Made by a program: the position numbers and the translations under genes. This document shows, piece after piece, positions 3,250-33,336 of a stretch of 36,719 bases of DNA; within the stretch, counting starts at the first letter, position 1, and each line of letters starts with the position of its first letter. Under the pieces are notes generated by a model that saw only the letters and a list, made by a program, of their open reading frames with translations, was not told the origin of the DNA and did not search any database. The stretch is from Candidatus Margulisiibacteriota bacterium (GTDB lineage Bacteria > Margulisbacteria > WOR-1 > O2-12-FULL-45-9): positions 1 to 36,719 of the forward strand of contig JAYEOW010000033.1 in assembly GCA_034723395.1 (NCBI GenBank). The letters run 5' to 3'.

Positions 3250-3254
3250 AATCT

Positions 3255-3280
3255 GAAATTTTTCCTCTATTCCGCTGATA
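3255..3280 (+). promoter_or_regulatory. GAAATT-N16-GATA motif, copy 1 (putative alternative-sigma promoter)
   Basis: GAAATT TTTCCTCTATTCCG CTGATA; ATG of the sigma gene lies 10 nt downstream. Confidence 0.65.
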
Positions 3281-3290
3281 ACAAAACAAG

Positions 3291-5624
3291 ATGCCTGTTA
3301 TACATTTTAGCTATTATCGGATAAAAAATCTGCGCAATACCTACCACCCCCCCGAAGAGCAGCGGATCAGTCGGGAGATAAACCGGCTTAAGGCAATGGG
3401 AAAACCCTTTGGTCCAAGGTTGCGGTATATTTCTCAAAACACACAAGTAAGAATAATTGAGACGCTTTGCCGTCATCTGGACATTCGCCACCCTCGCCTG
3501 CTTGTCCCTGCAAATTTCGTCACCAGGCTTCCTGGCTGGAAAGCACAGTTACAAGGCATATATAAACACTATGCAAATATGCTGCCAAAAGAACAATCGG
3601 GAGGGAGAGTAATTGATTATATGCTTGATCATCTCGGCGTCCAACCGCTTGAAGGACTTCCTGTTGCTGAACAGATAAAATTACTGAGTACCGGAAGGGA
3701 CAGAATAAATTGGAAGCATGTTAACAACTTTGTAATAAAAGCCCTGGTTGAACTATTGGCTAAAAAAGCCGGGGTCCCGCACCTGCGCATGCTTACCCAT
3801 CGGCATTTCAGAGACCTTGAAATTGCAGAGCTAGGGCCCACCCTTATCGCACTCTACGAAAACTACGCCAAAAAAAGCTCCGGGCCAGCTCAAGCAATCG
3901 ATTTGCTGCTCGATAAGATCGGTGTTCCCAAATTTGACGATCAGAGCTGGGAACAACAACTAAGGTGTTTAAAACAAATAACAAATATCCACTGGGAAAG
4001 GATTCCCGCCACGACCCAACTTAAATTAGTGGCCCTTTTAAAAGAACATGTTCCACAAAGGAACGAAGTTGCATGCCCCCATGTGCGCGCACTGGTTACG
4101 GTCCAATTCAAAGGGCTGGAAATTGGCCTGCCTTTATCCGGTTTGCACGATTATTATCGAAGAACAAAACCCCGGGAATACAATGGACCAACCATTGATT
4201 TTATGCTGGATCAACTGGGTGTAGAAAAACTGGAAGAACTGCCTTATGAAAAGCAATGTCTTTGTTTAAGGTATAAGGGACAGTGGACATGGACAAATAT
4301 TCCAAAAGAGACAAGCTTGCGGTTCTTAACCCGAGTAAAAGAGCTAAATGCGCTCCCCCACTTGCGAAATTTGGGCTGGCATCACTTATGCGATACCACA
4401 ATTCCAGAGATCGGACAAAGCCTAACCGGGCTTTACACCCATTATCAAATCAGGAAAGATAAAGATGACCCGAGAGGGGTTGTAGATATTATCCTTGATC
4501 ATCTTGGGGCAGAACAACTCTCAAAACTTCCATTAAAAGAACAATTAAAATGCACAGCTCTAAGACAATTTCGCTGGAAGCGCGCTCCGCCGGGAGTTAT
4601 TAGACACTATATTGAAGCGCTCAGGCATGCCGCGGACTTGAGAAGTTCGGCCGACCTGCTCCAGTCTCACTTTGCACTCCAGGTTGGGGGCAAAGAAACA
4701 GGATTAGACAGCTTATTTCTTTTTTTATCACAGCAATGGCGCCAAACGCCCTCTCAAACCGGAGTGATTGGCTGGGCGCTCAAGGAATACGGGACAACGC
4801 TGCAAGAACAAATCAAGGCAAAAAGAAGACACGGCGCAAACCGGCTTGACCTGGAAGAAAAAACCTTTTTAATTGATATGGCCCAAACAGGAAGCAGAGA
4901 AGCAATGGAACACCTGCTTTTTTTCTACCGGCCAATTATTTACGGCTGTATTAAAAGAGCCGTTGCAAGGGTTGGATTACGCCGAAAAACATATGAGGAG
5001 TTATTTCAAGTTGGGCAAATCGGTCTGGTCCGTCTCATAAAGCGTTTTGAGCGCGGAGGCGCTACTTTTGAAACCTATGTAATTGCTTCATTACCCTGGA
5101 CCATCAGCAGAGAAATAAAGGGCGATACCGGGGATATTCATCACCCTATAAGCTACCTTGATAAAATGAGAGGAATATATAAAACAGAAGCCGCTCTGGA
5201 AGAAAAATTAGGCCGCAAACCAAGTGATGAAGAATTGGCTAAGAAGCTGGAAATGGGCGTTGATGAGCTGCGCGTTAAGCGGCATTTATATGCAAAACAT
5301 GGGAGCTCACTCCAATCTCCGCTTTTTAGCGACGGCGATGCGACCTTGGAAGACAGGATCCCTGATTCCCGCATTATCCGTCCTGATTCGGCTTACCAGC
5401 AAACTGAGCTCAAAGAACTATTAGAAAATGCCATAGAAGGTTCGGGCCTAAACGAAAACGAAAAATTTGCCTTAAGAAAACACCGTCTCGAACAATATAC
5501 CCTTGAGGAAGTCGGCGGGATGCTGAACATGACCCGCCAGCGGATAAAGCAATTAGAAGTTGAAGCCTTCAAAAAAATTAAAAAAAGGCGTTTTGCACAA
5601 GCATTAAAAGAATTTATTTCTTAG
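3291..5624 (+). CDS. Sigma70-family sigma factor with N-terminal tandem-repeat extension
   Basis: From about aa 530: region 2 (EELFQVGQIGLVRLIKRF...FETY), region 3 (EEKLGRKPSDEELAKKL), SLQSPL..TLED linker, region 4 (TLEEVGGMLNMTRQRIKQLE). About aa 60-500 are ~97-aa repeats. Confidence 0.85.
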   Translation: MPVIHFSYYRIKNLRNTYHPPEEQRISREINRLKAMGKPFGPRLRYISQNTQVRIIETLCRHLDIRHPRLLVPANFVTRLPGWKAQLQGIYKHYANMLPKEQSGGRVIDYMLDHLGVQPLEGLPVAEQIKLLSTGRDRINWKHVNNFVIKALVELLAKKAGVPHLRMLTHRHFRDLEIAELGPTLIALYENYAKKSSGPAQAIDLLLDKIGVPKFDDQSWEQQLRCLKQITNIHWERIPATTQLKLVALLKEHVPQRNEVACPHVRALVTVQFKGLEIGLPLSGLHDYYRRTKPREYNGPTIDFMLDQLGVEKLEELPYEKQCLCLRYKGQWTWTNIPKETSLRFLTRVKELNALPHLRNLGWHHLCDTTIPEIGQSLTGLYTHYQIRKDKDDPRGVVDIILDHLGAEQLSKLPLKEQLKCTALRQFRWKRAPPGVIRHYIEALRHAADLRSSADLLQSHFALQVGGKETGLDSLFLFLSQQWRQTPSQTGVIGWALKEYGTTLQEQIKAKRRHGANRLDLEEKTFLIDMAQTGSREAMEHLLFFYRPIIYGCIKRAVARVGLRRKTYEELFQVGQIGLVRLIKRFERGGATFETYVIASLPWTISREIKGDTGDIHHPISYLDKMRGIYKTEAALEEKLGRKPSDEELAKKLEMGVDELRVKRHLYAKHGSSLQSPLFSDGDATLEDRIPDSRIIRPDSAYQQTELKELLENAIEGSGLNENEKFALRKHRLEQYTLEEVGGMLNMTRQRIKQLEVEAFKKIKKRRFAQALKEFIS

Positions 5625-5626
5625 GA

Positions 5627-6043
5627 TCAATGCACAAAAGATACCTGCCCCAGCCCAACACTTACCTCCGGCGTCTGCGCTACCCAATTTAAACCGGCAT
5701 CGGTGGCGTGCAGAATAACTCCTGTCCCAACATAACTTGTCCCCACCACCCAGGCCGTGTTGGCATCGATCGCGCTTATACTAATCATCTCGATCTCCGT
5801 AGTTGAAGATAGTTTCCGCATAATTGGCAATAATTTAATTGCTGTTGCAGGACGCAAAGATGAATCTACCTCTAAAACACCAAACAGCTCTTTGGCCCTT
5901 AAAAAACACATTTCCAACTCCTTCCCTCCACCATTTTTCGAAAGACTATGCGCTCGGGAAAGCTCAGAAGCAGTCATCCGTAATATATTTTTCCATCCGT
6001 ATTTAAGCAGATCTTCTCTTTTTAATTTTTTATGATATTTCAT
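5627..6043 (-). pseudogene. Chimeric ORF: DUF5674-partner helical protein N-terminus joined to a BNR/YCF48-like propeller fragment
   Basis: N-terminal ASELSRA...CFLRAKEL helical segment switches abruptly to ISAIDANTAWVVG..GVILHATDAGLNW (Asp-box-like). Confidence 0.5.
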
Positions 6044-6402
6044 ATTTCAAATAAATCCCCCATTATCTCTTTAACTTTTTAACGTATTTCCGGGGATTGA
6101 ATAGATTGTGATGGATTATTCTGGCGTGGCCGAATATTCATCAATGCAGTATATTCCAATCTCTCCCCTTTCTTTCTAAATGGGGAATAATTTGCTCCCC
6201 ATACATTTTTTTGTTTCAACCCTTTTTTTAATAAAATCTGTTCTGCATCTGCATGCGATGAACAGCCAGCAGCAAGAATTCCCTCTTCGATATCCACCAC
6301 AACTTTAATCATATCACCAAAGAATTCTTCCGCCAATCCTTTGATTTTATTCTCACTAAGAGGTTTATGTGATATTTTAGGCCATTCCATTATTCTATTC
6401 AA
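6040..6402 (-). pseudogene. DUF5674 family protein with a premature stop
   Basis: FGDMIKVVVD..HADAEQILL..WGAN..NIRPRQNN. TAA at 6079-6081 is followed in frame by KVKEIMGDLFEI*, ending in an ATGA overlap with the next ORF. Confidence 0.6.
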
Positions 6403-6432
6403 TTATATAATAGAAAAAAGAAGTAAATTTAT

Positions 6433-7449
6433 TTAAACATTAAACCGGAAACTCAAAATATCCGCATCTTCAACAATGTAATCTTTCCCTTTGAGGTGGA
6501 ATTTACCCTGCTCTTTTAGTTTACCTTCCGACCCGGCAGAGATTAGTTCGCCATATTTAAACATTTCAGCGCGTACGAATCCTTTCTGAATATCTGAGTG
6601 AATAACCGAGCCGGCAATCGGCGCGCTCGAACCTTTCCTTACCGGCCAGGCACGGACCTCGTCTTCGCCGACGGTAAAGAAAGAGATCAACCCTAATCCG
6701 GAGAACGCAAGGGTGGTCATTTTATCCAGCGCCGATTCTTCGATCCCCATCTCTTTCATGAACTCTTTCCTATCTTTCTCGTCCAGATTGCTGATCTCCT
6801 GTTCGATCTCGACTGATATCTGGACAGCGGGGAGCGACAATTCCTGGCTGATCTCTTCTAATAGTGAGAGGTCTTTGATCTTTTCTTCAGAAACGTTCAC
6901 AACCAAGATGATCGGCTTCATCGATAAGAATTGATAAGTACGCAGCTGTTTTAATTCTTCGTCCGAAGCATCTAATTGCCTGATCGGGAGCTCATCTTCA
7001 AGATGCTTTTTGCAGCGCTCCATAAGCCCCTTCTCTTTTTCCATCTGCGGTGAAGACTTCCTCTTCTGCTCTTTTTCGATATTCTCGATCCGTTTCTCTA
7101 CCAGCATCAGGTCAGATATAACCAGCTCCGAAACGACCGCATCGATCTCTCCCATATTACGCGCAACTAAACATAATTCGTCCGCGTTCTTTAATTGGGT
7201 AAGGATCGCTGTTTTGGCCGGTCCTTGCAGGTTAAAGTCGGGCAGAAGGAGGAATTCGATCTTGGCATAGGTCGTCTTCTTGGGCTTATACATTTCCTTG
7301 AGTTTAGTTACACGGGGATCCTTTACCTCACAAACGCCGATATGGACTTCCAACGGCTTCTGCTGAATGTCACTTAACGACGCTCCGGTCAACAAGCTAT
7401 AAAGCTGCTGCTGTCCGGCCTGCGGTGCTCCTAAAATTACGACACGCAT
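6433..7449 (-). CDS. ychF: YchF/Obg-like ATPase homologue (degenerate P-loop)
   Basis: DPRV..L..MYKPKKTTYA and TGS-type C-terminus (FFTVGEDEVRAW, AGSVIHSDIQKGFVRAE, GKDYIVEDADILSFRFNV). Start reassigned to ATG 7449 (MRVVILG). Confidence 0.85.
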   Translation of the reverse strand: MRVVILGAPQAGQQQLYSLLTGASLSDIQQKPLEVHIGVCEVKDPRVTKLKEMYKPKKTTYAKIEFLLLPDFNLQGPAKTAILTQLKNADELCLVARNMGEIDAVVSELVISDLMLVEKRIENIEKEQKRKSSPQMEKEKGLMERCKKHLEDELPIRQLDASDEELKQLRTYQFLSMKPIILVVNVSEEKIKDLSLLEEISQELSLPAVQISVEIEQEISNLDEKDRKEFMKEMGIEESALDKMTTLAFSGLGLISFFTVGEDEVRAWPVRKGSSAPIAGSVIHSDIQKGFVRAEMFKYGELISAGSEGKLKEQGKFHLKGKDYIVEDADILSFRFNV

Positions 7450-7471
7450 GGTTCTATAATAGCATTGAAAT

Positions 7472-7497
7472 GAAATTTTTACCATTTTTTGACGATA
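7472..7497 (+). promoter_or_regulatory. GAAATT-N16-GATA motif, copy 2
   Basis: GAAATT TTTACCATTTTTTG ACGATA; ATG at 7508, 10 nt downstream. Confidence 0.6.
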
Positions 7498-7507
7498 TCT
7501 ATTCAGT

Positions 7508-8075
7508 ATGAGTATCGCGAATGCCTTAAACATAAATAGATCACGTGCTACCTCTGTAAGGGTGGCTGAAAAAGACGTGCTAAGTTTTCTCGACTACAGC
7601 AGATCGGCCGCTATTGTGTACTCCTCTTCGGATTAATTTAACATAGAAGTTTTACACGACGTAAAAAATCGTGTTACCCAAGAGATGACACCTGAAACTA
7701 GCTAGTACTGTAAAGCATGTTTGGCCGCGCTGGGAACAAGGAGCGGTTAAAATTAATATTGACGCTGGAAAGATTCGTGACGACCAACATTATATATACA
7801 AATATGGCTGGAATAGACAAACTCTCGATTCGAACGGAGTTTTAGCGCTTGCCCTTATTAATCGCTCGAATGCAAAATCTAAGGCAGGAAAGCAATTTTT
7901 GGCAGAAAAATTCCAACCTAATGAAGCTATGTACATCTTGGATATAGTGAAGCATGCGGCTATCACTTGGGATCCCCGATCTGCGAAGGCTTATCGGGGA
8001 CGCGGAGGCGTATATCTTATGCTTCTTCTTCTCCTTGTCGCCTCACTAAAAAATACTGATAGAGAGTCAGAATAA
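7508..8075 (+). pseudogene. Probable decayed orphan gene
   Basis: ATG sits at the same offset from the motif as in intact orphans, but the frame stops after about 42 codons; no long ORF in the 570 bp up to the tRNA 3' end. Confidence 0.3.
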
Positions 8076-8079
8076 AATT

Positions 8080-8154
8080 TGGTAGCCCTAAGGGGAATCG
8101 AACCCCTGTTTCAGCCTTGAGAGGGCCGTGTCCTAACCGCTAGACGATAGGGCC
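8080..8154 (-). tRNA. tRNA-Glu (CTC)
   Basis: Reverse complement GGCCCTATCGTCTAGCGGTTAGGACACGGCCCTCTCAAGGCTGAAACAGGGGTTCGATTCCCCTTAGGGCTACCA: cloverleaf, GGTTCGA T-loop, encoded CCA. Confidence 0.96.
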
Positions 8155-8196
8155 ATGATTTATAAGTATAACATATTTGTATGTTATAATAAATTC

Positions 8197-9390
8197 ATGC
8201 CAAAACCCGAATTACTAATCCCCGCCGGCAACAGCGAAAAGCTCCGCAATGCGGTCCTTTTTGGCGCGGATGCGGTGTACTTAGGCGCCGGTCCCTACTC
8301 ACTACGTTCATCCGACCAAACTTCTTTCGGTCTTAAAGAATTAAAAGGAGGCGTTGAGTCTGCCCATTCAAAGAATGTTAAAGTTTATCTCGCGATGAAT
8401 ATTTTTACCTTCGATGATGATATCGATGCGATGATGGAATATCTGAAAGAAGCAAACAAGCTTGGGATCGATGCCGTGATTATTTCAGACGTTGGCCTTC
8501 TCCCCTTAATTCAAAAACTCGATAAGAATATTAAGGTCCATCTAAGCACCCAAGCTAATACGCTTAATAGCGAAGCGGTTAAGTTTTGGAAAGATCATGG
8601 GGTAAAAAGAGTTGTTCTAGGAAGAGAATTGAATGCCCATCAGATCAAAATGATCAGAAAAAATGTGCCGGATATCGAATTAGAACTATTTGTTCACGGT
8701 GCGATGTGTATGTCGTACTCCGGTCGCTGTCTCCTCTCCAAACATATGACTGGAAGAAGCGCTAATCGCGGGGAATGCACCCAGCCATGCCGCTGGGAGT
8801 ATCGGTTGAAGGAAGTTACCCGACCAGAACAAGAGTTTCGTATCCAGGAAGATGAAAGAGGAACTTATATTATGAATTCCCGCGATCTCTGCTTGATCGA
8901 ACATATTCCCGAGCTGATCGAAGCCGGGATCAATTCCTTTAAGATCGAAGGGCGAATGAAATCGGCTTATTACGCCGCGCTGGTGACGAAAATTTACCGC
9001 AAAGCGATCGACTCAGATAAATACGATCCTGCATGGAAAGAAGAGCTTCAAAAAGTATCCCACCGAACCTACTCTACCGGATTTTATTTTAATGAGGATG
9101 ACACCGAAAGTGTTAAATGCGATACGAATATTCGAACACATAGTTTTGTTGGAGTAGTCGAAGATCATGGTGAGGAGCTCGAAGTTAAAGCACGCAACCA
9201 ATTTGCGGTTGGTGATGAGCTTGAGATTATCGATCCTAATCATGATGAGATCGTTAAATTTAAGGTTACAAGCATGAAAACAATCGAGAACGAACCGATC
9301 GCTGAAGCACATAATGATTATCATGTGCTGCTAAATGTCGATTTACCCCATAAAGCATCTAGATATTCACTTCTAAGAAAACAGCGATAA
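8197..9390 (+). CDS. Peptidase U32 family protein (TrhP-like tRNA hydroxylation protein)
   Basis: KPELLIPAG, GADAVYLG, HLSTQAN, FVHGAMCMSYSGRCLLS, NRGECTQPCR, KIEGRMKS. Start reassigned to ATG 8197. Confidence 0.9.
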   Translation: MPKPELLIPAGNSEKLRNAVLFGADAVYLGAGPYSLRSSDQTSFGLKELKGGVESAHSKNVKVYLAMNIFTFDDDIDAMMEYLKEANKLGIDAVIISDVGLLPLIQKLDKNIKVHLSTQANTLNSEAVKFWKDHGVKRVVLGRELNAHQIKMIRKNVPDIELELFVHGAMCMSYSGRCLLSKHMTGRSANRGECTQPCRWEYRLKEVTRPEQEFRIQEDERGTYIMNSRDLCLIEHIPELIEAGINSFKIEGRMKSAYYAALVTKIYRKAIDSDKYDPAWKEELQKVSHRTYSTGFYFNEDDTESVKCDTNIRTHSFVGVVEDHGEELEVKARNQFAVGDELEIIDPNHDEIVKFKVTSMKTIENEPIAEAHNDYHVLLNVDLPHKASRYSLLRKQR

Positions 9391-31780: not shown

Positions 31781-31807
31781 ACTCCCTCATCAACTAAAAA
31801 TAACATA

Positions 31808-31852
31808 TTGACATTTTCATCAGGCAAAAGTATAATCGAAAATGAATCGAAA
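31808..31852 (+). promoter_or_regulatory. Consensus sigma70 promoter with an overlapping direct-repeat operator
   Basis: TTGACA(31808)-17 nt-TATAAT(31831); AATCGAAA at 31834 and 31845 (11-bp period). Confidence 0.8.
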
Positions 31853-31860
31853 GTCAAGAT

Positions 31861-33336
31861 ATGCTAACTAAAAGACAAAAACAAGTTCTGGATTTCATCA
31901 AATCATTCCTTAAAAAGAAGGGATTCGCCCCCTCTTTAGAGGAGATAAAGAAGCACCTTAAGTTATCTTCGGTTTCTACAGCACATCATCACATGAAGGC
32001 ACTGGAACGCCTTGGCTTCCTCAAAAGAGAAGAAAACCAGCCTAGAGCTGTGGATGTTTTTGAGGCGGGGCAAATGGTTACAATTCCTCTACTTGGAGTT
32101 ATCTCCGCTGGCGTACCGATCGAGGCAATCGAAGATAAGGAAACCATCGCAGTGCAAAAATCGAGACTGCCCAGAAACGGTGAATTTTACGCACTGAAAG
32201 TAAAAGGCACCAGCATGATTGATGAAAACATTAATGATGGCGATATTGTGGTTGTTAGAAGTCAGTCAACCGCAGACAATGGGGATAAGATTGTTGCTTT
32301 GATTGATAATACCGAAGTCACACTAAAAAAACTATTTAAGGAAAAAGGCCGGATTAGACTCCAGCCAGCAAACGCTGAGTTACAACCAATTTATGTTGAT
32401 CCTAAGAACTTAGTTATTCAAGGAAAAGTAATAGATATTGTCAAAACACAAGAGGCATCACCAGAAATTAGCACTCAAGAACAAGAAGATCTTTTCCCCC
32501 TCCCCCAATCAAACAACGAAGACCTCCCTCTCAATACAATCATGTGCAATGATTCTCTTGAGAGAATGAAAAAAATGCCCACAAACTCAATCGATTTAGT
32601 TATTGCAGATCCTCCCTACAACCTCTCAAAGGGTAATTCGTGGTCTTGGAAAGGAAACAAAACTCTTCCGGGATTTGGCGGCACATGGAATAAGACAAAA
32701 GAATCTTGGGACAATATGCCCCTAAATGATTACTTAAATTTTACTTTGGCCTGGCTTTCCGAAGCAAAAAGACTATTAAAACCATCGGGATCAATTTGGG
32801 TATTTGGAACCTACCATAACATAGGAATAATTAATATCGCACTCCAGTTTCTTGGCATTGAAATTATTAATGAGGTTGTCTGGTATAAAAGAAACGCCTT
32901 CCCAAACTTATCTGGTCGGCGACTTACCGCAAGCCATGAAACGCTATTGTGGGGACATGTTGGAGAAAAGAAACGTAAGTATTATTTTAATTATAAAAGA
33001 TCAAAAGAGTTTTATTCTCCATCTGACAAATTAAAGGCACAGGGGAAACAAATGCGCACAGTTTGGGATATTCCAAACAATAAAAACCGTGAAGAAATCA
33101 AATATGGCAAACACCCAACACAAAAGCCACTTAGTATATGCAAAAGGATTATTCTTCTTAGCTCAAAAGAAGATGATATTGTGTTTTCTCCATTTGCCGG
33201 AGTAGGAAGTGAATGTTTGGCTGCGAAATTACTAGACAGACAATACATTGGCATTGAAAAGGAGATACAATATGTCGAAATCGCACAAAAGCGCCTCAAA
33301 AATACAAAGAAACTATTACAACTTTTTAAAGCATGA
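31861..33336 (+). CDS. lexA: LexA repressor fused to a beta-class N4/N6 DNA methyltransferase
   Basis: LTKRQKQVLDFI..APSLEEI wHTH, ISAG cleavage site, GTSM Ser, TLKK Lys; then ADPPYN, HPTQKP, SPFAGVGS. Confidence 0.92.
   Translation: MLTKRQKQVLDFIKSFLKKKGFAPSLEEIKKHLKLSSVSTAHHHMKALERLGFLKREENQPRAVDVFEAGQMVTIPLLGVISAGVPIEAIEDKETIAVQKSRLPRNGEFYALKVKGTSMIDENINDGDIVVVRSQSTADNGDKIVALIDNTEVTLKKLFKEKGRIRLQPANAELQPIYVDPKNLVIQGKVIDIVKTQEASPEISTQEQEDLFPLPQSNNEDLPLNTIMCNDSLERMKKMPTNSIDLVIADPPYNLSKGNSWSWKGNKTLPGFGGTWNKTKESWDNMPLNDYLNFTLAWLSEAKRLLKPSGSIWVFGTYHNIGIINIALQFLGIEIINEVVWYKRNAFPNLSGRRLTASHETLLWGHVGEKKRKYYFNYKRSKEFYSPSDKLKAQGKQMRTVWDIPNNKNREEIKYGKHPTQKPLSICKRIILLSSKEDDIVFSPFAGVGSECLAAKLLDRQYIGIEKEIQYVEIAQKRLKNTKKLLQLFKA

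Follow-up and report, generated by a model that had tools for sequence, protein, structure and literature searches.

A conserved array of tandem helical units on a putative alternative sigma factor of an uncultured Margulisiibacteriota bacterium, found also on helicases

Sigma factors usually answer to separate anti-sigma proteins, or else to short regions of their own sequence. A gene of Candidatus Margulisiibacteriota bacterium (assembly GCA_034723395.1, contig JAYEOW010000033.1), whose lineage is a poorly known sister lineage of Cyanobacteria, raises the question of what a long and repetitive N-terminal extension might do on such a protein. The gene lies in a stretch of 36,719 nucleotides (nt), here called the window, as an uninterrupted open reading frame (ORF; 3291–5624, + strand) that encodes a protein of 777 amino acids (aa), P0001. 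Its N-terminal 510 residues consist of tandem helical units of ~95 aa each, and its C-terminal 260 residues form a sigma-70-type module with regions 1.2, 2, 3 and 4. The ~95-aa unit appears to be a previously undescribed domain, forming a small family of its own. Our tentative answer, which we hold at just under even confidence, is that the array would be an input module acting in cis to control an orphan alternative sigma factor. The features of the gene are as follows.

3254..3282 (+): promoter-like site TGAAAT-N17-GATAAC, ending 8 nt before the ATG
3291..3428 (+): N-terminal leader, residues 1–46; residues 1–14 modelled with low confidence, helix 20–35 kept among orthologues
3429..3686 (+): repeat unit 1, residues 47–132; found by the iterated profile, leave-out profile 57.6 bits, E 5.5e-20
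3711..3974 (+): repeat unit 2, residues 141–228; leave-out profile 90.6 bits; inside the two-unit model (mean confidence 93.8)
3993..4271 (+): repeat unit 3, residues 235–327; leave-out profile 85.0 bits; best-conserved unit, holding C262, H264, C323 and C325
4290..4556 (+): repeat unit 4, residues 334–422; leave-out profile 96.8 bits
4575..4814 (+): repeat unit 5, residues 429–508, degenerate and terminal; iterated profile E 7e-10, leave-out profile 2.1 bits
4839..5126 (+): sigma regions 1.2 and 2, residues 517–612; placed by a sub-threshold Pfam Sigma70_r2 match, the RpoD alignment and model helices
5169..5387 (+): sigma region 3, residues 627–699; Pfam Sigma70_r3 44.7 bits, cut-off 25.3
5445..5585 (+): sigma region 4, residues 719–765; Pfam Sigma70_r4 45.9 bits, cut-off 24.1; RpoD-like 4.2 recognition helix

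The start codon at 3291 is backed by orthologues that open with matching residues (for example P0009). The original prediction had described a sigma factor with about 4.5 tandem repeats, anchored by H-x-R-x-L motifs at nt 3489, 3780, 4080 and 4359; all four anchors are present, and a fifth match, at 3804, is a chance occurrence. With the units taken in the phase of that prediction (residues 64–160, 161–260, 261–353 and 354–450), Smith-Waterman scores were 60–125 against shuffle means of ~25, with z between 7.2 and 23.5 for all six pairs and none of 200 shuffles reaching the observed score. By the same pairwise comparison with shuffles the flanks (residues 1–63 and 451–530) were not significant, z being only 0.1–1.4 for residues 451–530. 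Units were re-phased from a conserved W-x3-P motif and a hidden Markov model (HMM) was iterated over all 43 proteins fetched, which resolved the five units listed above; each bears the signature W-x3-P, long helix, H-P-R-x-L, G-L-Y, D-x-M-L-D-x-L-G and Q.

The iterated HMM that recovers unit 5 itself contains fifth units. A leave-out HMM was made from units 2–4 of 13 orthologues only, P0001 excluded; it gave unit 1 57.6 bits and units 2–4 85–97 bits, and it matched unit 5 only over residues 429–461, its first third. Nonetheless, the unit-5 segment scored 7.4 with this HMM, against a shuffle maximum of 3.8 (0/100 shuffles reached 7.4), and unit 5 is therefore a real but strongly degenerate terminal unit. 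The degenerate fifth unit that had been proposed thus stands on this measure, though not on pairwise comparison. The original count of about 4.5 repeats is fair; in the better phase it amounts to four complete units and a degenerate one at the end.

The view that no sigma group has this architecture also held. In Pfam, the first 510 residues of P0001 gave no match at E≤1 save a chance-level PAS_3 row (E 0.12), and the array belongs to no family in Pfam, NCBIfam or PADLOC; sequence and profile searches of the PDB with the array likewise returned no match. A literature search at title and abstract level found no description of a repeat-array sigma architecture.

An AlphaFold2 model of the full-length protein, built with a 16-row alignment, is all-helical (predicted local distance difference test, pLDDT, 81.4; predicted TM-score, pTM, 0.54), with the repeats mostly at pLDDT 85–95. 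A two-unit piece (residues 141–333) was modelled at pLDDT 93.8 and pTM 0.85, so that neighbouring units are predicted to stack rigidly. Each unit in the models comprises five helices and one short beta-bridge. A helix-turn-helix reading of the P-E-I-G...G-L-Y stretch was dropped, since the model has the beta-bridge there and no helix. For the full-length model, the first 50 rows of a Foldseek comparison with the PDB held sigma-factor entries only; they include two integrative sigma–RpoC models, and the entries in rows 10 and 30 are structures other than RNA-polymerase complexes. Fold comparison of the repeat units, as had been suggested, gave no match: the two-unit model found nothing at E≤0.001 in the PDB (best E 2.3), no match in BFVD (best 0.63) and nothing over noise in a wide VIA-align search. 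The ESM Atlas gave nothing by features and a best TM of 0.37 by structure. An ESM Atlas cluster labelled 'helicase associated (HA)' was set aside with TM values of 0.26 and 0.31, under the bar. Complex prediction of the array (residues 40–515) with the sigma module (516–777), on 16-row alignments, gave 0.22 and 0.25 against a mark of 0.32, values that speak neither for a contact between the two nor against one.

Among 14 orthologues, units at the matching position share 42–49% identity (35% for unit 5), compared with 31% between different units inside one protein, a pattern of positional orthology: the units are old, fixed and individually conserved. Mean column conservation over 16 orthologues is 0.54–0.61 in units 1–4 and 0.49–0.54 in sigma regions 2–4; conservation is thus no lower in the array than in the sigma part, and the array is both real and subject to selection. 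It peaks in unit 3, where 21/99 positions are at least 90% conserved in 16 sequences. It carries C-P-H (window 4074–4082, residues 262–264) and Q-C-x-C (4257–4265, residues 323–325), which the other units lack, and these residues are widely kept (C262 14/16, H264 16/16, C323 16/16, C325 15/16). A zinc or redox site made from C262, H264, C323 and C325 is conceivable, but C323 and C325 are unlikely to bind a metal together, being spaced two residues apart along a predicted helix.

In the C-terminal module, Pfam recognises region 4 (PF04545, residues 719–765) and region 3 (PF04539, residues 627–699) above cut-off, with the bit scores listed above, and the generic superfamily model TIGR02937 scores 67.5 against a cut-off of 42.9. 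The C-terminal 277 residues align with the RpoD of the same genome at 33% identity over 218 columns (E 4e-32), gapless through regions 2.2–3.0 and continuing to the C-terminus, and both the alignment and the model place a region-1.2-like helix ahead of region 2. Specific NCBIfam models fall far short of their cut-offs: TIGR02393 RpoD_Cterm scores 105.4 bits against 354, which sets P0001 apart from primary sigma factors, RpoS 91 against 378.7, TIGR02479 FliA_WhiG 80.8 against 189.6, which places it outside that family, and SigBFG 69.5 against 234.35, all of these matches spanning only residues ~520–776. Nor is P0001 an extracytoplasmic function (ECF, group 4) factor, having region 3 and the region-1.2-like helix. 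Its genome (G000; 1.68 Mb, 55 contigs, 97% complete) encodes a true RpoD elsewhere, on contig C29 (391.5 bits, cut-off 354), so P0001 would be an alternative sigma factor; region 4 exceeds its cut-off at 8 places in the genome, pointing to several further sigma genes.

By its sequence, P0001 appears to stand between groups 2 and 3. It shares regions 1.2, 2 (sub-threshold in Pfam), 3 and 4 with group 3 (FliA/WhiG, SigB/F/G) and with RpoS-like group 2 factors, and, as in group 3, it lacks a Trp-Trp pair in region 2.3 and is an alternative factor beside a true RpoD. Unlike either group, it scores far under the family cut-offs, has a region 4.2 helix closer to that of RpoD than to that of FliA, and bears a 510-residue N-terminal repeat array, which those families do not. 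The absence of the Trp-Trp pair, which had been remarked on in the original prediction, was confirmed in the RpoD alignment: T-W-W-I-R-Q of RpoD corresponds to I-A-S-L-P-W in P0001, A-S replacing W-W, while the preceding F-x-T-Y is retained. It is nothing special, however: group 3 sigma factors normally lack the pair, as does the genome's own FliA-like sigma factor on contig C55.

The array stands where primary sigma factors carry region 1.1, a short acidic domain. E. coli sigma-70 and M. tuberculosis SigA (PMC10011835) are examples of primary sigma factors with region 1.1 or a lineage-specific N-terminal extension. P0001 likewise has an extension ahead of region 1.2, through which binding to DNA or to core might be modulated in cis. 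The extension of P0001 differs from region 1.1 in consisting of five ~95-aa helical units of variable net charge, and in being attached to a factor that is not primary.

The array is not confined to one protein. When residues 1–510 were run exhaustively with HMMER against 1.84 billion cluster representatives, 37 proteins matched at E≤0.001, of which 24 reached ≤1e-10 and 16 reached ≤1e-30, and a word-indexed search of 5.8 billion clusters gave 11 matches; a profile of repeat-only proteins brought just two new proteins. Among 30 relatives scanned with Pfam, seven carried sigma families, six the AAA_11/AAA_12 families of superfamily 1 (SF1) helicases, 16 no family and one a spurious zinc-finger; seven further sigma-type proteins, beyond these 30, came from the word-indexed search. 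In four of the proteins that showed no family (P0031, P0038, P0042 and P0043), the C-terminus is a degenerate ECF-like sigma2–sigma4 tail, which aligned to the sigma family with an hhalign probability of 99.9 (E 1.3e-35), colinear to the last columns. Sub-threshold sigma70-ECF rows (E 7.6e-5 to 0.026) were seen in P0042, P0043, P0038 and P0029, and P0031 had no sigma row in the family scan. The array thus precedes sigma modules, degenerate ECF-like sigma tails or Upf1/MkoA-like SF1 helicases, and on this comparison it appears to behave as a portable N-terminal module on different outputs.

Relatives with other repeat numbers and other fused effector domains, both of which had been proposed as worth seeking, therefore exist. 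Sigma factors carry 1, 4 or 5 units, and 2–7 are found across the family elsewhere. In the 16-sequence sigma-type alignment five units are complete in 14 proteins, the first of the five is truncated in P0019, and P0009 has four; the greater length of some members (866–958 aa) comes from an extra N-terminal extension of ~140 aa, not from additional units. The orthologue in genome G138 (402 aa; L031:5769–6977, − strand, contig G138:C5) consists of unit 1 alone with sigma regions 3 and 4, and by its sequence reads as a natural 'repeat-deleted' form. Because this one-unit form and the four-unit P0009 exist, the array would be dispensable for sigma function as such. Two tandem, overlapping repeat-sigma paralogues (L015:2810–5557 and 5554–8322, + strand; 915 and 922 aa, 61% identical), each with five units and an extra N-terminal extension of ~140–230 aa, occur in a metagenome-assembled genome (MAG) titled 'Bdellovibrio sp.'. 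Helicase-type members of the same phylum include proteins of 1264 aa with five units (L028:3629–7423, + strand, genome G144) and of 981 aa with two (L029:7322–10267, + strand, genome G001), both with an MkoA-like SF1 core.

The family is rare and patchy, an accessory gene found only in uncultured bacteria. The array was present in 3/41 close relatives and in 6/146 genomes of the phylum with its own genome counted: sigma-type in its own genome, G012, G143 and G138, and helicase-type in G001 and G144. One orthologue of the same taxonomic family is from a record titled 'candidate division WOR-1'; sigma-type members outside that family come from the 'Bdellovibrio sp.' MAG and one unclassified MAG. 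No relative was found in the viral contigs scanned, and three were found in the metagenome contigs scanned.

How might such an array work? In the scheme that we tentatively prefer, P0001 would be a functional accessory alternative sigma factor in which a five-unit helical array takes the place of region 1.1. The array would be a platform that binds a partner or ligand and acts in cis, gating when or where the attached output, sigma module or helicase, works; P0001 could in that case be a one-component sigma factor needing no separate anti-sigma factor. That no partner gene is apparent at the examined loci was counted in favour of this cis-acting input. There is precedent among ECF sigma factors, of which ECF41 and ECF42 are example groups with fused extensions, in their case C-terminal and of known folds. 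ECF factors with fused regulatory extensions are treated in parts of two reviews (PMC8999054, PMC7826278). P0001 resembles ECF41 and ECF42 in being an orphan sigma factor: none of its neighbours is an anti-sigma gene, and its likely regulator is the large domain fused to it. The ECF-like sigma2–sigma4 tail of distant array family members is a further likeness to ECF factors; it differs from ECF41 and ECF42 in that its extension precedes the sigma module, is repetitive and matches no known family, and in having region 3.

Several points weigh against the cis-acting input module. We infer both that the array binds something and that it acts on the sigma module. Moreover, the sigma module and the helicase alike have nucleic acids as their targets, which suits a nucleic-acid-binding array as well as a sensor. 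Pfam PF04542 (Sigma70_r2) reaches only 17.8 bits in P0001 (residues 555–598), below its cut-off of 24, and region 3 is missing in 5/16 aligned family members. Sigma70_r2 does pass its cut-off in orthologues P0012 (28.2) and P0014 (24.5); all the same, binding to RNA polymerase is, with a sub-threshold region 2 and region 3 lacking in those relatives, something that we infer.

Were the array a targeting device instead, one of the options in the original prediction, its units would attach to DNA ahead of promoters, or to structures formed by RNA or DNA, and deliver the sigma factor or helicase to its sites. P0001 is like TALE, PPR, PUF and mTERF proteins in having tandem all-helical repeats tied to nucleic-acid machinery. 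The units of those families are ~30–36 aa long, near-identical save for the code residues in TALE and more divergent in PPR, PUF and mTERF, whereas those of P0001 are ~95 aa, 31% alike, each conserved in its place and without a fold match. The net charge of the array, +17 in P0001, is not conserved (−11 to +20 across 23 proteins), and searches of Pfam, NCBIfam and PDB sequences, together with the fold comparisons, revealed no DNA- or RNA-binding domain, so that we regard targeting as unlikely. The 'programmable specificity' once suggested for the repeats is not supported either: units that are positionally orthologous and only 31% identical within a protein give no sign of a repeat code, and, by the measure of TALE- or PPR-type programmable repeats, the ~95-aa units are divergent and number five in 15/16 sigma-type proteins. 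A bolder form, in which the ~95-aa unit would be a new fold that reads nucleic acid unit by unit, five of them placing the sigma factor or helicase on an extended site, we think very unlikely; if true, P0001 would combine a sigma factor and a reader of upstream elements in one protein, and its units would be a new class of modular nucleic-acid-binding repeat.

The patchy, accessory distribution, reaching MAGs outside the taxonomic family of P0001, and the tandem paralogues at 61% identity in one genome would suit a role in conflict, with the array sensing a phage or invader component and switching on a sigma response or a Mokosh-like helicase. Two helicase relatives are comparable to Mokosh MkoA and Upf1-like SF1 helicases: P0010 matches the MkoA helicase core of PADLOC at 270 bits and P0023 at 183 bits, and both match Pfam AAA_11/AAA_12. 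The sigma part of P0001 weakly matches MzaA (NCBIfam NF041931, 75.3 bits; PADLOC PDLC02203, 36.5 bits), which also has a C-terminal sigma part behind ~500 other N-terminal residues. The MkoA match is limited to the helicase core, however, with a new N-terminal array and no nuclease partner of the phospholipase D (PLD) type at two loci; the MzaA match covers only positions 503–714 of a 726-position profile, the generic sigma part, and its 75.3 bits lie far below the 800 required, so P0001 falls outside that family, its N-terminal part does not match and no Mza genes lie near it. With no Mza or Mokosh partners, nucleases or defence genes adjoining the examined loci, where neighbours are such as V-ATPase and LepA, and no relative in viral contigs, a defence sensor is quite improbable. 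A long shot is that the array serves as a structural spacer, tether or oligomerisation domain without a signalling role, holding the sigma factor at a cell site or multimerising it. Its predicted rigidity as a helical repeat (pTM 0.85 for two units) and the lack of any ligand-binding family in Pfam or NCBIfam agree with this, but unit-specific conservation matches that of the sigma module, and 21/99 positions of unit 3 are nearly invariant, which argues for specific interactions rather than a spacer, and the module is re-used on unrelated outputs.

Control of the gene is a separate matter from control of the protein. The 41-nt gap before the P0001 gene contains TGAAAT-N17-GATAAC at 3254–3282, 8 nt from the ATG and without a Shine-Dalgarno sequence, so the gene does, as originally proposed, carry the motif promoter. 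The strict form TGAAAT-N17-GATAW occurs at 82 sites in the 1.68-Mb genome, where ~3 are expected from base composition, and an ORF of at least 80 aa begins within 200 nt of 71/82 sites, in 25 cases within 12 nt; to judge from sequence, a start ≤12 nt from the motif would be a leaderless-type spacing. The consensus is an A-tract followed by (G/C)TGAAATTT-N14-C-GATAWW, and sites in the window lie at 3254, 7471, 9737 and 10775 (+). Promoters of the sigma-28/sigma-D class have the form TAAA-N15-GCCGATAT, which the motif appears to resemble.

A housekeeping role for the motif was rejected: in a crude gene set, its relaxed form lies upstream of 71/1454 genes (16/1487 in gene interiors), compared with 153/1454 (12/1487 in interiors) for canonical TTGACA/TATAAT-like sites. 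The two classes coexist in the window, where a perfect TTGACA-N17-TATAAT at ~31800–31860 precedes a gene at 31861. The 22 sampled genes downstream of the motif include glucan/glycogen enzymes, a Ser/Thr kinase, a RelA/SpoT-like protein, carbamate kinase and another sigma factor, and 13 of them have no NCBIfam match at E≤1e-10; rpoD itself bears the motif.

Whether P0001 reads its own promoter can be judged from the relatives. The motif is equally abundant in 41/41 of them (16–123 sites each, against 0–5 for a reversed control), including 38 in which the array was not found. P0001 cannot, then, be the reader of this promoter class, and the autoregulation that had been entertained is disfavoured. 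The accompanying suggestion of a sigma cascade is plausible, in that another conserved sigma factor may transcribe the P0001 gene. The most obvious candidate reader of the motif class is the FliA/WhiG-like sigma factor on contig C55 (G000:C55:4553–5293, + strand; L007:928–1668; 246 aa), which scores 135.6 bits with TIGR02479 (cut-off 189.6) and is kept in 38/41 relatives at 60–81% identity. Most likely, on this comparison, the P0001 gene belongs to the regulon of another sigma factor, and its transcript is probably leaderless and made from a sigma-28-like promoter, the reader of which would be another sigma factor present throughout the class. Of the sequencing runs searched, the only one that contains the stretch is a DNA metagenome from brine, which may have yielded the assembly; no RNA run is listed for it.

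Neighbourhoods were examined in the window, at six sigma-type loci (L015, L016, L017, L020, L030 and L031) and at two helicase-type loci (L028 and L029). Neighbours vary at each examined locus and are housekeeping genes: V-ATPase, ETF (electron transfer flavoprotein)/acyl-CoA dehydrogenase, gatA/gatB, peptidases, CysZ, LepA and UvrA. In the window, a row of V-type ATPase A/B/D genes ends 41 nt upstream of the P0001 gene; L028 and L029 sit beside LepA, HemN-like and UvrA genes and cell-wall sugar enzymes. The examined loci have no adjacent anti-sigma-like, defence, nuclease or Mza/Mokosh partner gene, and no PLD nuclease lies near L028 or L029. Downstream in the window, a convergent 138-aa ORF without a Pfam family (5627–6043, − strand) ends 2 nt past the stop of the sigma gene, and is followed on the same strand by genes for a DUF5674 protein (6079–6402) and YchF (6433–7533); YchF lies within 2–3 kb at two loci, which was taken as chance. 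A tRNA-Glu (CTC) gene (8080–8154, − strand) is directly upstream of a U32 peptidase gene (8155–9390).

The family is rare, its hosts are all uncultured, and the function and expression of P0001 are read from sequence. Within those limits, what the locus offers is a portable, conserved module, re-used on helicases, that could sense a signal or aim its protein at a target. If its ligand or partner were identified, this would establish a novel mode of wiring for transcription initiation and add a protein domain family.

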